Shown piece by piece: positions 6,581 through 32,000 of a DNA stretch of 32,000 nucleotides. Within the stretch, counting starts at the first letter, position 1, and every line of letters begins with the position of its first letter. The stretch covers positions 330,001-362,000 of the forward strand of contig NZ_CP088239.1 of the NCBI RefSeq assembly GCF_021054785.1. Direction: 5' to 3'. The translations under genes were made by a program, and so were the position numbers. The notes under the pieces are model-generated. The model was not told where the DNA came from, made no database searches, and was given only the letters and a program-made list of their open reading frames with translations. Source of the stretch: Tannockella kyphosi. GTDB lineage: Bacteria; Bacillota_I; Bacilli_A; Erysipelotrichales; Coprobacillaceae.

Positions 6581-6654
6581 TGGAGCGGGTGATGGGAATC
6601 GAACCCACGTAGTCAGCTTGGAAGGCTGAAGTTCTACCATTGAACTACACCCGC
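6581..6654 (-). tRNA. tRNA-Gly (anticodon TCC)
   Basis: Reverse complement GCGGGTGTAGTTCAATGGTAGAAC..CCTTCCAAG..GGTTCGATTCCC..CACCCGCTCCA. Cloverleaf arms, TCC in the anticodon loop, CCA encoded. Confidence 0.93.
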
Positions 6655-6660
6655 AAAAAA

Positions 6661-6749
6661 TGGTGCCCAGGGCCGGAATCGAACCGGCACGGATTTTAAG
6701 GTCCGCAGGATTTTAAGTCCTGTGCGTCTACCAGTTTCGCCACCTGGGC
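6661..6749 (-). tRNA. tRNA-Leu (anticodon TAA)
   Basis: Reverse complement GCCCAGGTGGCGAAACTGGTAGACGCACAGGACTTAAAATCCTG.. with long variable arm, GGTTCGATTCC T-loop, CCA encoded. Confidence 0.93.
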
Positions 6750-6773
6750 ATGGCTTAATGCTTCTATAAAAAA

Positions 6774-6849
6774 TGGTGACCCGCAGGCGACTCGAACGCC
6801 TGACCCTCTGATTAAAAGTCAGATGCTCTACCAACTGAGCTAGCAGGTC
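6774..6849 (-). tRNA. tRNA-Lys (anticodon TTT)
   Basis: Reverse complement GACCTGCTAGCTCAGTTGGTAGAGCATCTGACTTTTAATCAGAGGGTCAGGCGTTCGAGTCGCCTGCGGGTCACCA. Confidence 0.93.
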
Positions 6850-6858
6850 TTGTTTATT

Positions 6859-6934
6859 TGGCTGGGGTACCTGGATTCGAACCAGGGGGATGACAGAGTC
6901 AAAGTCTGTTGCCTTACCGCTTGGCTATACCCCA
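6859..6934 (-). tRNA. tRNA-Gln (anticodon TTG)
   Basis: Reverse complement TGGGGTATAGCCAAGCGGTAAGGCAACAGACTTTGACTCTGTCATCCCCTGGTTCGAATCCAGGTACCCCAGCCA. The 7-bp acceptor stem pairs perfectly. Confidence 0.92.
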
Positions 6935-6938
6935 AGAA

Positions 6939-7022
6939 TGGTGGAGAAGGGCGGATTCGAACCACCGAACCGTTAGGAACTGAGTTACAGTCAGCCGCGT
7001 TTAGCCTCTTCGCTACTTCTCC
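6939..7022 (-). tRNA. tRNA-Tyr (anticodon GTA)
   Basis: Reverse complement GGAGAAGTAGCGAAGAGGCTAAACGCGGCTGACTGTAACTCAGTT.. with long variable arm, GGTTCGAATCC, CCA encoded. Confidence 0.92.
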
Positions 7023-7026
7023 ATTA

Positions 7027-7102
<76 letters not shown>

Positions 7103-7115
7103 ATTAACTAAAAAA

Positions 7116-7191
7116 TGGTGGAGGTTAACGGGCTCGAACCGCTGACCCTCTGCTTGTAAGGCAGATGCTCTCCCAACTGAGCTAAACCTCC
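7116..7191 (-). tRNA. tRNA-Val (anticodon TAC)
   Basis: Reverse complement GGAGGTTTAGCTCAGTTGGGAGAGCATCTGCCTTACAAGCAGAGGGTCAGCGGTTCGAGCCCGTTAACCTCCACCA. Confidence 0.93.
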
Positions 7192-9697: not shown

Positions 9698-9860
9698 CTC
9701 TTATTAAGAACCACTAGATGCAGATCTAAGATGTGGTGGCAACCCTATAGCATAGAAGGTGCCCGACTAAGCAAGTTTACTTGAACAATAAGAGAAAGCT
9801 ACAAAAATGCTTTCTCTTTGGGAAGCTTTTTTTGTTTTTACAAAAAGAAAAGGAGAAAGT
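9698..9860 (+). ncRNA. SAM riboswitch of the SAM-I clan (S-box-like aptamer 9698-9794) plus expression platform
   Basis: P1 CTCTTAT (9698-9704) / ATAAGAG (9788-9794) encloses a 4-helix layout with the conserved GGCAACC...GGTGCC core, immediately upstream of metK. The P2 region deviates from the canonical GGAGGGA..GGCCC. Confidence 0.6.
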
Positions 9861-16294: not shown

Positions 16295-16323
16295 GGTTAC
16301 AACAACTAGTCGTATAAATACAT

Positions 16324-16578
16324 TGAAAAGAAATAGTACATATAGAAATATTTTTAGAGAGTTCTTGGTTGGTGGAAAAGAATAATGGATCTATATCGAA
16401 TTCATCTTGGAGTAGAGTGCTGAAAAAGAAAGTAGGCATCTCCGGTAACACCCGTTATAGTGTACAAGTATAACTCGAAAGAACGTACTTGATAAGGTTT
16501 ATATAGTAATATATAAATGAACAAAGGTGGTAACACGAAGTGAATGCTCTCGTCCTTATATAGGATGGGAGTTTTTTT
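16324..16578 (+). ncRNA. T-box leader (tRNA-sensing riboswitch), specifier probably UUC (Phe), with intrinsic terminator
   Basis: AGAGA bulge (16356-16360), distal loop GGTTGGTGGAAA (16367-16378), GAA-TTC-A specifier context (TTC 16401-16403), AGTA box, F-box CCGTTA (16452-16457), T-box core AAAGGTGGTAACACG (16523-16537), terminator CTCTCGTCC/GGATGGGAG + T7 (16547-16578). Confidence 0.8.
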
Positions 16579-16616: not shown

Positions 16617-17630
16617 ATGATTATAGTAATGAAAAAAGAGGCAACGAAACAAGATGTAGCAAATGTTTCACAAATGATTGAAGACAAAGGATTAGCAGTA
16701 AGTGTAGTAGATGGACAGGGCGTTAGTGTTGTAGGTGTTATTGGGGATACAACAAAAGTCGATGCTCGCCAATTAGAAGTATTACATTCAGTAGATAAAG
16801 TAATGCATGTAGGAGAGCCTTATAAATTAGCGAACCGTGCTTTTCATCCAGAAGATTCTATTATTGATGTAGCTGGTGTTAAAGTGGGAGGAGAGAACTT
16901 AGCTTTAATTGCAGGACCATGTTCAGTAGAGAGTGTAGAACAAGTAGTAGAAATAGCAAAAGCAGCAAAAGCTGCTGGGGCAAATATGTTACGTGGTGGA
17001 GCATTCAAACCAAGAACATCACCTTATGCATTCCAAGGGATGGGAAGTAATGGATTGGATATTTTAGTAGAAGCAAAGAAAATCACAGGATTACCAATTG
17101 TATCAGAATTAATGGATGCCAGTTATATTGAAGAATTTGAAGAAAAAGTAGACTTAATTCAAATTGGAGCAAGAAACATGCAAAACTTTGATTTATTAAA
17201 AAAATTAGGGAAAGTAAAAAAACCAATCTTATTAAAGAGAGGATTATGTGCAACATTTGAAGAATGGATTATGTCAGCAGAATATATTATGGCTCATGGG
17301 AATCCAAATGTTATCTTATGTGAAAGAGGGATTCGTACATTTGAAAGCTATACAAGAAACACATTAGATTTACAAGCAATCCCAGTAGTACAAAAACTAA
17401 CACATTTACCAATTATTATTGATCCAAGTCATGCTGGAGGAAAATGGTGGTTAGTAGAACCAATGGCAAAAGCAGCAGTAGCAGCTGGATGTGACGGATT
17501 AATGGTAGAAGTACATAATAATCCAGAATGTGCAATGTGTGATGGACCACAATCATTAAAACCAGAAAAGTATGCAAAATTAATAAAAGAAGTTGGAGCA
17601 ATTGCACAAATCGTAGGAAAGAAGGTTTAA
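16617..17630 (+). CDS. aroF: 3-deoxy-7-phosphoheptulonate (DAHP) synthase, type I-beta with N-terminal ferredoxin-like regulatory domain
   Basis: 337 aa. The N-terminal ~70 aa (MIIVMKKEATKQDVANVSQMIEDKGL...) precede a KDSA/DAHPS barrel (LIAGPCSVES, LRGGAFKPRTSPY, IIDPSH). Confidence 0.88.
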   Translation: MIIVMKKEATKQDVANVSQMIEDKGLAVSVVDGQGVSVVGVIGDTTKVDARQLEVLHSVDKVMHVGEPYKLANRAFHPEDSIIDVAGVKVGGENLALIAGPCSVESVEQVVEIAKAAKAAGANMLRGGAFKPRTSPYAFQGMGSNGLDILVEAKKITGLPIVSELMDASYIEEFEEKVDLIQIGARNMQNFDLLKKLGKVKKPILLKRGLCATFEEWIMSAEYIMAHGNPNVILCERGIRTFESYTRNTLDLQAIPVVQKLTHLPIIIDPSHAGGKWWLVEPMAKAAVAAGCDGLMVEVHNNPECAMCDGPQSLKPEKYAKLIKEVGAIAQIVGKKV

Positions 17631-29721: not shown

Positions 29722-29841
29722 AAATAGTCTTTTTCACTACTCATAAATGAGCGGTGAAATAAATAATAACTCATTAAAGAGTGCTTTCTCTAAAATCGCA
29801 GATAAATAATTATAATAAGAGTGATGAAGGAGGAGGTATAC

Positions 29842-30183
29842 ATGATTGGAGAAAGAATTCAATTTTTACGTAACGAACATAACCTAAAACAAGAAGAATT
29901 AGCGAAGATATTAAAAATAGGGCATAGTACTTTGGCAGCATATGAACAAAACAAGAGAAAGCCTAAAGTGGAAACAATTATTTTAATAGCAAAATATTTT
30001 AATGTTTCTACTGATTTTATTTTAGAGTTAACAAATAAACCAGATCAACAATATAACCAAGGCAAAACTTTGGTAGATAATAAACACTTTGTATCCATAC
30101 CAGACTCTTTGTGGGATGTAGAAGTAGCAATTGATGAATTTGAGTTATTAAAGGAGTTTATCGTTTATAAATACAATAAATAA
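29842..30183 (+). CDS. XRE-family helix-turn-helix transcriptional regulator
   Basis: MIGERIQFLRNEHNLKQEELAKILKIGHSTLAAYEQNKRKPKVETIILIAKYFNVSTDFIL. GAAGGAGGAGG SD. The ATG at 29842 is preferred over the GTG at 29821. Confidence 0.85.
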   Translation: MIGERIQFLRNEHNLKQEELAKILKIGHSTLAAYEQNKRKPKVETIILIAKYFNVSTDFILELTNKPDQQYNQGKTLVDNKHFVSIPDSLWDVEVAIDEFELLKEFIVYKYNK

Positions 30184-30184
30184 G

Positions 30185-30880
30185 ATATATCGCATTGCAA
30201 TATGTGATGATGACCAACAATTTTTAGAAAAACTTCAGCAACACTTCAAACCTTATTTACATAAAATAGAACTCACATCTTATCAAGATCCTAATGAATT
30301 ATTAGAAAATATAAAACATTATCATGCAATACTAATAGATTATGAAATGAAAACGATGACAGCTTTTGATCTATTAGAAAAAATTAGAAAAGAAAACATT
30401 TTAAAAGTTATCATTAGCTCTCATAATGAATATATTTATCAAAGCTTTGCATATCATATTTTCTGGTATATCCAAAAACAACAGTTATCAAAATACTTTC
30501 CTATTATGATGGAAAAGTTAATAGAACAGATGGAACAAAATAACCAAAGGATAATATTAAATGAGGGCAGTGTTCATATTAATATTCCTAAAGAGGAAAT
30601 AAGATATATAGAAAAACAAAAGAATTATCTTTATATTCACGCAAATCAAACATATAAAATTAGATATTCATTTAAAGACTTTGTTGTTCAATTTTATGAC
30701 GATGATTTTGTAATACCAATATATGGAACAATGGTTCACATCCAAAATATAAGGTATGTACATAGTGGTAGAAAGCATCTTATATTATGGGACGATACAA
30801 CATTACCAATTAGCTATACCCATAAAAACAATCTCTTACAAAGAACAAATGCATATAAAATGAAAAGACCAAACAGTTAG
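30185..30880 (+). CDS. LytTR-family response regulator (AgrA-like). The receiver-domain N-terminus is in frame but lacks a canonical start codon, so it may be a pseudogene or use a non-canonical/coupled start
   Basis: The frame is open from 30152. From 30185 it reads IYRIAICDDDQQFLEKLQQHFKP...AILIDYEMKTMTAFDLLEKIR...VIISSHNEY (REC-like), then a LytTR domain (IPKEEIRYIEKQKNYLYIHANQTYKIRYSFKDF...). The first ATG/GTG/TTG in frame is at 30347. Confidence 0.6.
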   Translation: MYRIAICDDDQQFLEKLQQHFKPYLHKIELTSYQDPNELLENIKHYHAILIDYEMKTMTAFDLLEKIRKENILKVIISSHNEYIYQSFAYHIFWYIQKQQLSKYFPIMMEKLIEQMEQNNQRIILNEGSVHINIPKEEIRYIEKQKNYLYIHANQTYKIRYSFKDFVVQFYDDDFVIPIYGTMVHIQNIRYVHSGRKHLILWDDTTLPISYTHKNNLLQRTNAYKMKRPNS

Positions 30881-30891
30881 TTTGGTCTTTT
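30863..30891. terminator. Bidirectional terminator between the LytTR gene and convergent agrD
   Basis: AAAAGACCAAAC (30863-30874) agtta GTTTGGTCTTTT (30880-30891), a 12-bp stem with flanking A/T runs. Confidence 0.75.
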
Positions 30892-30909
30892 AAAAGAAAG
30901 AGTGATTTT

Positions 30910-31035
30910 TTATTTGTTATTTAATTTGGCAGGCATTTCTGGTTCATATAACCAGAAGAATGTTCCAATATTGCTTGCTGAAAGTGCAATAGCACAGATA
31001 CCTAAACATAATAATGATTTAAATTGTTTTTTCAT
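30910..31035 (-). CDS. agrD: AgrD-like autoinducing peptide precursor (41 aa), not in the ORF track
   Basis: MKKQFKSLLCLGICAIALSASNIGTFFWLYEPEMPAKLNNK. AAGGAG 8 nt upstream, 17-nt overlap with the end of the AgrB-like gene, AgrD-like tripartite layout and YEPxxPxKL tail. Confidence 0.7.
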   Translation of the reverse strand: MKKQFKSLLCLGICAIALSASNIGTFFWLYEPEMPAKLNNK

Positions 31036-31534
31036 GTGATAATCTCCTTAATATAATTAATAATATAGTTATTAGTACTGCTAAAAACATACAAAAACTA
31101 ATAGTAGAATTTAAGCAATACACGATGTAAAAAGCAATGAACATGATACCGTGGATAAATAAGTTCTTTTCATAAGAAACTAAGTAATTAATTACTAATA
31201 ACACTGCAAAAACATAATATATATATCTAGGCGCAGCTACTGTATGTATCATCGTTGTTGTTAAAAACATGAGAATATTAGAACATATAGTACATTGTAA
31301 AAATGTTTTGCAGTGATAGCTTTTATGTGCTTTACGAAAAGGGACAAAAATAATATTAAATAAAACAAATTCATAAAACAACCCACATGTAATAGAGACT
31401 AGTATTGCTAATGCAGTGTTAATGGTTGTTGTTATTATTGCTTCGATACCATATCTTAATATTTGAATGTCCTCTAAGTCATCGCTTACTGTAATTTTAT
31501 GTGCTAACTTATTTGATAATCCAATAATGTTCAT
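31019..31534 (-). CDS. agrB: AgrB-like accessory gene regulator B (AIP-processing membrane peptidase)
   Basis: 171 aa, multi-TM. N-terminal ..DLEDIQILRYGIEAI.. and FRKAHKSYHCKTFLQCTICS, where His and Cys are 7 residues apart as in S. aureus AgrB H77/C84 (..RRHAHGAHAPSSFWC..). AAGGAG SD. Confidence 0.8.
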   Translation of the reverse strand: MNIIGLSNKLAHKITVSDDLEDIQILRYGIEAIITTTINTALAILVSITCGLFYEFVLFNIIFVPFRKAHKSYHCKTFLQCTICSNILMFLTTTMIHTVAAPRYIYYVFAVLLVINYLVSYEKNLFIHGIMFIAFYIVYCLNSTISFCMFLAVLITILLIILRRLSHEKTI

Positions 31535-31557
31535 ATAAATCTCCTTCTTTCTACGAA

Positions 31558-31586
31558 ATCATACTAAAATAGTGTGGAATTGTAAA
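31558..31586 (-). promoter_or_regulatory. Putative agrBD promoter
   Basis: Minus strand reads TTTACA (31586-31581), 17 nt, TATGAT (31563-31558), about 20 nt upstream of the agrB SD. Confidence 0.5.
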
Positions 31587-31620
31587 CAATGTGGTAAAAT
31601 TATAACAATAGAGGTAAAAT
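31585..31620. repeat. Imperfect tandem direct repeat, candidate LytTR-regulator binding site
   Basis: AACAATGTGGTAAAAT (31585-31600) and AACAATAGAGGTAAAAT (31604-31620). Period ~19-20 bp, abutting the -35 of the agrBD promoter. Confidence 0.45.
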
Positions 31621-31633
31621 ATGGAGGTTTTTG

Positions 31634-32000
31634 ATGGATATAGTCATTTTATTAGTTTTTGCTTTTGGAGAAATGTTTTTATGTTTGTTGTTATGTGATG
31701 TATTTTTGAAGTATAAAGATACAAAGTTAGGGACAAAGATTATTTTGTCTGTTGTTTATGGTGTAATGATGCACTATGTGGGTGTGGTTGATAATAATGG
31801 TATTTTTTCATTTGTAATCTTTTTGTTTTGTTTATTTGTTTATGGTTATTTATCAACGGGGACAAATTTTAGAAAAATAATAATGACAGTATTTTTGGTT
31901 GCAGTGAATTTAATGGTTATTAATGCATTATTTTTGGTATTAGCGTTTTTAAGTGCGGAATCAACTACTAGTTTGTTGAATGGTACAGAATCAGAGGTGC
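31634..32000 (+). CDS. Multi-TM membrane protein, N-terminal part (3' end outside window). Possibly the sensor domain of an AgrC-like histidine kinase
   Basis: GGAGG 6 nt before the ATG at 31634. Open to the window end: MDIVILLVFAFGEMFLCLLLCDVFLKYKDTKLGTKIILSVVYGVMMHYVG...MTVFLVAVNLMVINALFLVLAFL.. (at least 4 hydrophobic segments). The kinase call is based on context only. Confidence 0.4.
   Translation, partial: MDIVILLVFAFGEMFLCLLLCDVFLKYKDTKLGTKIILSVVYGVMMHYVGVVDNNGIFSFVIFLFCLFVYGYLSTGTNFRKIIMTVFLVAVNLMVINALFLVLAFLSAESTTSLLNGTESEV

Follow-up and report, generated by a model that had tools for sequence, protein, structure and literature searches.

Threonine in place of cysteine or serine at the ring-closing position of an AgrD-family precursor peptide in an agr-type locus of Tannockella kyphosi

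Tannockella kyphosi is a cultured isolate of the Coprobacillaceae (Erysipelotrichales), linked to the hindgut of a herbivorous fish, Kyphosus sydneyanus. In a 32,000-nucleotide stretch of its genome (contig NZ_CP088239.1, positions 330,001 to 362,000; hereafter the window, with its first letter as position 1), a 41-codon open reading frame (ORF) that overlaps the end of an agrB gene encodes a precursor peptide of the AgrD family. Its residue at the position where the ring of the autoinducing peptide (AIP) is closed is Thr25, and the same Thr is found in two diverged relatives. The gene call itself is already public, since the NCBI pipeline names the peptide AgrD, and this ring residue is the unusual part and the only unusual feature of the locus. 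We read the gene as agrD of an agr-type quorum-sensing locus, in which Thr25 would close a five-residue macrolactone and the product would drive autoinduction through a kinase and a regulator, with a probability of roughly 0.55. The lactone itself, a five-residue ring [TFFWL] closed by Thr25, is judged to be about an even call, if anything slightly less.

It is known that AgrB installs a thiolactone via a conserved Cys and, rarely, a lactone via Ser (PMC8251862; PMC12312760; PMC11953309). The position of this residue in the new peptide was determined by a register test, in which characterised AgrD precursors were run through the NCBIfam model TIGR04223 (quorum_AgrD) and the residues at profile position 23 were compared. 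The alignments were of equal length and apparently ungapped, with the exception of that of S. pseudintermedius, which has one insertion. Profile position 23 is occupied by the ring residue in all of the references, namely C28 of S. aureus AgrD-I, C24 of C. perfringens AgrD, C28 of C. difficile AgrD1, C25 of L. plantarum LamD, C32 of Listeria AgrD and S28 of S. pseudintermedius AgrD, and it is occupied by T25 in the window peptide and by T30 in each of the two relatives, P0007 and P0009. Moreover, Thr is the sole hydroxyl or thiol residue in register across these three peptides, and its hydroxyl keeps the formation of a lactone chemically possible.

Membership of the AgrD family is supported by the same model, against which the peptide scored 23.9 bits (cutoff 19, E=3.5e-5), with residues 15-39 aligned to profile positions 13-37 of 38; Pfam gave no match for the peptide. 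A first-pass annotation of this DNA, made from the letters and a list of ORFs, had proposed the profile search as a check on its AgrD-like call, and the call is borne out by the score above the cutoff, by the coupling to a gene matching Pfam AgrB, by the flanking genes for an AgrC-type GHKL kinase and a LytTR regulator, and by two diverged syntenic loci. That annotation took the gene to be unannotated, which is true of the ORF track supplied with the sequence but not of RefSeq, where WP_249029832.1, named as AgrD family, is identical to the peptide. The properties common to AgrD precursors are present in a small ORF (about 40-55 codons being usual) overlapping agrB on the same strand, a charged follower with Glu and Pro, and an N-terminal membrane-targeting leader; what is absent is the ring-closing Cys (rarely Ser) five residues ahead of the AgrB cleavage site. 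By sequence model, position, follower and leader, the peptide is thus assigned to AgrD, and it breaks the Cys/Ser rule by its predicted ring nucleophile.

The precursor can be divided into three putative parts, a leader, a core (...NIG-TFFWL) and the charged follower YEPEMPAKLNNK. The leader, as read from the sequence, begins with the basic MKKQFK and continues with the hydrophobic SLLCLGICAIAL; it resembles a signal peptide over about residues 1-21, where a cleavage site may be placed. AgrB would cleave between L29 and Y30, as suggested by the register with Listeria ...CFMFV/YEPKSP (the slash marks the cut), and this prediction agrees with the peptide end at ...TFFWL that had been proposed in the first-pass annotation. 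The likeness of the tail to the AgrD tails of Listeria, C. perfringens and S. aureus, which had been pointed out there, is reproduced by their common alignment to TIGR04223. As for the AgrD layout described there, the leader and the proline-containing tail stand, but it was missed that the 'short hydrophobic core' has Thr, and not Cys or Ser, at the ring position. A separate observation is that one Cys in the leader (agrD codon 10, 31006-31008 (-); codon 15 in P0007 and P0009) is invariant in all three peptides within the motif S-x-L-C. It is their sole conserved Cys, the rest of the leader being poorly conserved, in a family that is normally Cys-dependent. A role of Cys10 as the ring nucleophile was put aside, since the ring would have 20 residues and Cys10 lies within the hydrophobic leader that is normally removed, and a lipobox reading of S-L-L-C was rejected, in which position -1 is a mismatch, Leu and not Gly, Ala or Ser.

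The coordinates of the gene and its signals are given in Table 1. The description in the first-pass annotation of an ORF of 41 codons from ATG to TAA (31035 to 30910 (-)), an AAGGAG 8 nt 5' of the ATG, a start 17 nt inside the end of an AgrB-like ORF and a 12-bp-stem terminator behind the ORF was confirmed in every part from the sequence and the ORF list: the AAGGAG was read at 31049-31044, the overlap with agrB covers 17 nt (31019-31035), the upstream ORF matches Pfam AgrB, and the terminator hairpin was found at 30891..30863(-), beginning 19 nt past the agrD stop codon. A scan of the 1.8-kb region for terminators gave this one site, compared with 0.2 expected from shuffled sequences, and hairpins with T-runs likewise lie 3' of agrD in the orthologous loci L007 and L009. 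In the relatives, the matching place of AAGGAG is taken by GGGAGA.

In word-indexed homologue searches, the agrD peptide and AgrB each matched nothing but themselves. By an exhaustive phmmer search of 1.84 billion protein representatives, one credible relative was obtained, P0007 (MKNKLMSYRVRSMLCTFVAAIAVVLETPNTWFWLYEPKKPAKFNKK), and a profile search added P0009 (...VVLDSPNTWFWLYEPKKPAKFKK), which scores 21.6 bits against TIGR04223, above the cutoff of 19; agrD orthologues were located in L007, L008 and L009. Three further high-scoring phmmer matches (P0005, P0006 and P0008) were discarded as spurious, being long tandem-repeat proteins with scores summed over six repeats. The loci of P0007 and P0009 are syntenic with that of T. 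kyphosi, with a divergent kinase gene, an agrB/agrD overlap of 11 nt, a convergent gene for a 227-aa LytTR regulator and an HTH (helix-turn-helix) gene, and their AgrB proteins are 39-40% identical to the window AgrB. The pattern T-x-F-W-L-Y-E-P-x-x-P-A-K is common to the window peptide, P0007 and P0009, the invariant residues being T, F, W and L in the core and Y30, E31, P32, P35, A36 and K37 in the follower. When the two metagenomic lineages, which share 82% nucleotide identity, are compared, the codon changes in agrD number 11 synonymous against 4 conservative non-synonymous, with none in the ring or the tail; this synonymous excess indicates that agrD is translated and under purifying selection. 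Conservation of the small ORF next to AgrB homologues, by which the first-pass annotation had proposed to judge its call, is found at two diverged, syntenic loci, at the same position in each, and in our estimate the 41-codon ORF is almost certainly a real, translated agrD homologue.

Within the species, six Logan metagenome contigs (L001-L006) hold the same locus, with agrB intact and agrD identical. Over 1.55 kb (window 30150-31700), the comparison with L001, L002 and L005 gave nine nucleotide differences, eight of them in the regulator gene (seven synonymous and one L17F), and one in the kinase gene; agrB, agrD and the intergenic promoter region are free of them. Under an even spread of the single-nucleotide polymorphisms (SNPs), the chance of none falling in the 625 bp of agrBD is about 0.01; the SNP-free segment could reflect a recombination boundary or an unusually strong constraint. 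Outside the species, relatives are few. A scan with the AgrB alignment over genome contigs of 185,579 species and metagenome contigs (JGI) yielded no confirmed relative. The back-translated motif FWLYEPxxPAK was not found in the genome contigs of the 185,579 species, where even the exact match of T. kyphosi itself is missing; its genome is apparently absent from or masked in that collection, and the absence of relatives there is therefore weaker evidence. Nine matches of metagenome contigs to the looser WLYEPxxPAK were rejected as chance, with the wrong GC content, nearby stop codons and no small ORF. As judged by these searches, the Thr-type AgrD subtype is rare.

Going by domain and family assignments, the locus holds a complete agr-type set, that is, AgrB, AgrD, an AgrC-type kinase and a LytTR regulator. 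AgrB (named accessory gene regulator B family protein in RefSeq) matches Pfam PF04647 over residues 8-118 (E=7e-19, 68.3 bits, cutoff 23), and R67, H74 and C81 (R-x6-H-x6-C) are invariant in the three AgrB orthologues at 39-40% identity. In the ungapped top alignment by hhalign, H74 and C81 fall on H77 and C84 of S. aureus AgrB, which we take to be its catalytic pair; this alignment is weak (E=0.15) and its reference sequence was entered by hand. A pairwise BLASTP of the window AgrB against S. aureus AgrB was uninformative, and no solved structure related to the window AgrB was found by sequence search. The kinase gene is cut at the window end, which leaves a fragment of 121 aa that by itself gives no Pfam match. 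It is whole in L001-L006, where the protein has a multi-pass membrane N-terminus and matches Pfam HATPase_c_5 PF14501 (GHKL). Just past the 3' end of the kinase gene in L007 (5935-6066 (+)) and L008 (245-376 (+)), a 43-codon ORF without a Pfam match was called. The regulator, named LytR/AlgR family response regulator in RefSeq, matches Pfam LytTR (E=6.9e-8) and has a receiver-domain N-terminus IYRIAICDDD..., and its gene is probably co-transcribed with the preceding Xre-type HTH gene, which likewise adjoins the regulator gene in L007. The order of a single agrBDCA operon is not present here, the kinase gene being divergent and the regulator gene convergent behind the HTH gene; split agr arrangements are known in Clostridia (PMC12312760).

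Table 1. Positions of the agr-type locus and its predicted signals in the window
Feature	Position	Strand	Remarks
Xre-type HTH gene	29821..30183	(+)	Pfam HTH_3 E=1e-15; ends 1 nt ahead of regulator ATA
LytTR response regulator gene (AgrA-like)	30185..30880	(+)	Convergent with agrD; apparent start ATA
Intrinsic terminator past agrD	30863..30891	(-)	12-pair stem, 5-nt loop, T-rich tail
agrD, 41-codon precursor peptide gene	30910..31035	(-)	ATG start, TAA stop; product MKKQFKSLLCLGICAIALSASNIGTFFWLYEPEMPAKLNNK
Predicted C-terminal follower (putative AgrB recognition tail)	30913..30948	(-)	YEPEMPAKLNNK; TIGR04223 positions 28-37
Predicted core/macrocycle codons T25-F-F-W-L29	30949..30963	(-)	Thr25 at canonical ring-closing position
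agrB, 171-aa membrane peptidase/cyclase	31019..31534	(-)	RefSeq WP_249029833.1; putative catalytic H74, C81
Shine-Dalgarno AAGGAG of agrD	31044..31049	(-)	Within agrB 3' end; 8-nt spacer ATTATCAC to agrD ATG at 31035-31033
Candidate agrBD promoter TTTACA, 17 nt, TATGAT	31558..31586	(-)	Top sigma-70-like site of region, 10/12 consensus matches
Direct-repeat pair ATTTTACC	31593..31620 (31620-31613, 31600-31593)	(-)	20 bp start-to-start, just upstream of -35
AgrC-type sensor histidine kinase gene, 5' part	31637..32000	(+)	Divergent from agrB; cut at window end; 430 aa in full

In the scanned region, promoter-like sites are not enriched over shuffled sequences (19 found, 15.8 expected), and the agrBD promoter is to be taken as a consensus match only. 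The 8-mer of the direct repeats is not enriched in the window either (6 found, 3.1 expected). L007 and L009, whose intergenic DNA has otherwise diverged, have a TTTTnCC pair, likewise spaced 20 bp apart, in the homologous place ahead of agrB. The ATTTTACC repeats are candidate sites of the LytTR regulator, with a geometry as expected for regulators of this type, and an autoinduction loop at the agrBD promoter is plausible from this arrangement.

Based on these features, the following course of events may be proposed, in which the steps of cleavage and cyclisation follow the established mechanism of AgrB (PMC8251862). Translation of agrD would start behind its own AAGGAG and be coupled to the end of agrB. 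AgrB would recognise YEPEMPAKL in the follower YEPEMPAKLNNK and cleave between L29 and Y30 by its putative pair Cys81/His74, the cleaved peptide staying on C81 as an acyl-enzyme thioester. The thioester would then be attacked by the Thr25 side-chain hydroxyl, which would take the role usually played by a Cys thiol, to give the five-residue macrolactone [T-F-F-W-L]. The leader may be cut off by a peptidase, either extracellular or in the membrane, so that a short exocyclic tail remains; the small residues S19-A20-S21 suggest NIG[TFFWL] or ASNIG[TFFWL] as products, which is a guess only. The secreted peptide would be sensed by the divergently encoded AgrC-type kinase, which would phosphorylate the LytTR regulator, and the regulator, by binding to the TTTTACC repeat pair ahead of the agrBD promoter, would close the autoinduction loop.

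Compared with known systems, the overall layout of the window peptide is closest to that of the AgrD peptides of C. perfringens and C. difficile ([CLWFT] and ANST[CPWII]), with which it shares a signal-peptide-like leader starting with MKK, an aromatic ring (CLWFT versus TFFWL), a follower of the type x-x-P-E/K-x-P-K and the same register; moreover, agrBD lies apart from the kinase and regulator genes in several Clostridia, as in the window (PMC12312760). The difference is in the ring position, where the clostridial peptides have Cys and the window peptide has Thr. AgrD of Listeria monocytogenes (AIP A[CFMFV], follower YEPKSP...) is likewise encoded by a small gene downstream of agrB and aligns in the same register of TIGR04223, and in both peptides a five-residue hydrophobic ring segment is directly followed by Y-E-P-x-x-P. 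However, the Listeria ring has Cys and the operon order there is agrBDCA, whereas the window has Thr, a divergent kinase gene and a convergent regulator gene, and the window leader is signal-peptide-like and not long and hydrophilic. The Ser-lactone AIPs of S. pseudintermedius (RIPT[STGFF]) and of C. difficile AgrD2 (NSA[SSWVA]) are precedents for a five-residue lactone that AgrB-type enzymes can make via a hydroxyl side chain in this position (PMC8251862; PMC12312760), although Ser is a primary alcohol and the Thr of the window peptide is a secondary, beta-branched one. The AIP of Enterococcus faecalis, FsrD/GBAP (QN[SPNIFGQWM]), is also a lactone, and a ring closed by Ser21 of the window peptide would have the same size (9). 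On the other hand, FsrD is not matched by TIGR04223, fsrD lies in frame within fsrB, and Ser21 is not kept in register by the relatives.

Several points weigh against a Thr-closed five-residue signal acting through this kinase and regulator. The conservation of Thr is seen in three peptides that represent only two independent lineages, and one of them, P0007, scores 16.7 bits against TIGR04223, below the cutoff of 19. The reference AgrD sequences of the register test were entered by hand, though their rings match those tabulated in PMC12312760. Targeted full-text searches found no Thr-closed AIP, and closure by AgrB via a secondary alcohol is not reported in the papers that were read. Furthermore, Ser is present at -9 and -11 in the window peptide and Thr or Ser at -8 in the relatives, so a larger ring is conceivable. 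The last point is the start of the regulator gene, which has no ATG, GTG or TTG at the head of the receiver domain (30181-30203 (+): ATA TAT CGC ATT GCA ATA TGT) and could mean a weakened circuit in T. kyphosi. Its frame begins 1 nt past the TAA of the HTH gene, no Shine-Dalgarno sequence is present, and the ATA is common to all T. kyphosi contigs; at the homologous codon, the L007 orthologue (227 aa) has ATG TAT AAA ATA GCA (MYKIAVCDDE) behind AGGAG. The gene calls also differ, RefSeq giving 226 aa from the second ATA (30200) and ORF finders 177 aa from the ATG at 30347, by which most of the receiver domain would be lost.

Among the alternatives, the best surviving one, still unlikely, is that AgrB acts here only as a C-terminal peptidase and the acyl-enzyme is hydrolysed, so that either the hydrophobic, linear ...TFFWL peptide serves as the signal or none is made. 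The absence of Cys and Ser from the canonical position would fit this, Thr being a poor nucleophile next to Cys, and Cys28 mutants of S. aureus AgrD are reported to be cleaved by AgrB while giving no AIP. Yet a linear product leaves unexplained why Thr is invariant at the ring position, though the AgrB proteins are only 40% identical, and the kinase, the regulator and the catalytic motif of AgrB are all kept.

Nearly as well placed, and also improbable in our view, is a genuine agrD with a larger, GBAP-like lactone closed via an upstream hydroxyl, which would be a 9-residue ring from Ser21 to Leu29 in T. kyphosi (SNIGTFFWL) and an 8-residue ring from Thr27 or Ser27 to Leu34 in the relatives. 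Ser, as a primary alcohol, is a better nucleophile than Thr, Ser21 lies exactly 9 residues ahead of the predicted cleavage site, and a hydroxyl residue is present at -8 in both relatives. In addition, a Ser lactone with a 9-residue ring is documented for GBAP (PMC12312760). However, the candidate residues are out of register (-9 versus -8) and are not the same throughout (S, T, S), with nothing at -9 in the relatives, whereas the Thr at -5 is invariant and lies on the canonical profile position. Moreover, FsrD is not recognised by TIGR04223 and the window peptide is, which places the latter in the five-residue-ring AgrD lineage by sequence.

Decay of the locus, with the agr system no longer signalling and the ORF left as a relic, is quite improbable. 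The Thr in place of Cys or Ser and the regulator ATA without a Shine-Dalgarno sequence, where the relative has ATG, could be taken as its marks, but agrD shows the 11:4 synonymous excess between relatives, the regulator shows seven synonymous changes against one non-synonymous change between T. kyphosi strains, and six contigs carry agrB and agrD intact and without differences. L007 combines the same Thr with an intact, ATG-started regulator of 227 aa, and the Thr is therefore not linked to decay. Finally, that the 41-codon ORF is not a gene at all is effectively refuted: dozens of ORFs of 25-45 codons are listed in the AT-rich DNA of the window, many of them by chance, and a length of 41 codons by itself is not significant, but agrD stands above chance because of the curated profile match, its position and its conservation, and it has a ribosome-binding site, the coupling to agrB, a terminator, syntenic orthologues with synonymous excess and an entry in RefSeq.

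Away from the agr-type locus, the window contains a cluster of seven tRNA genes (Gly, Leu, Lys, Gln, Tyr, Thr and Val; 6581-7191 (-)), a SAM (S-adenosylmethionine) riboswitch (9698-9794 (+)) preceding an ORF at 9807, and a T-box leader (16314-16560 (+)) preceding an ORF at 16617.

Another AgrD is unsurprising to specialists; what is unexpected is that Thr is conserved at the cyclisation position. AIP structure-prediction pipelines, such as that of the syn-BNP work, assume closure by Cys or Ser (PMC11953309), and mining rules of this kind would mispredict or discard precursors of the Thr type. The candidate products are synthesisable peptides of 5-12 residues from a cultured isolate, which makes the question directly testable. 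Tentatively, and at somewhat less than even odds, we propose that T. kyphosi and its uncultured relatives make a beta-methyl lactone AIP, [T-F/W-F-W-L], as a third AgrB-installed linkage besides the Cys thiolactone and the Ser lactone; if this is true, AgrB-type enzymes accept a secondary alcohol as the nucleophile. With Thr conserved beside an intact AgrB, kinase and regulator, either a beta-methyl lactone with greater resistance to hydrolysis would come within the substrate scope of AgrB and the chemistry of AIPs, or a linear signal would be released by an AgrB system.

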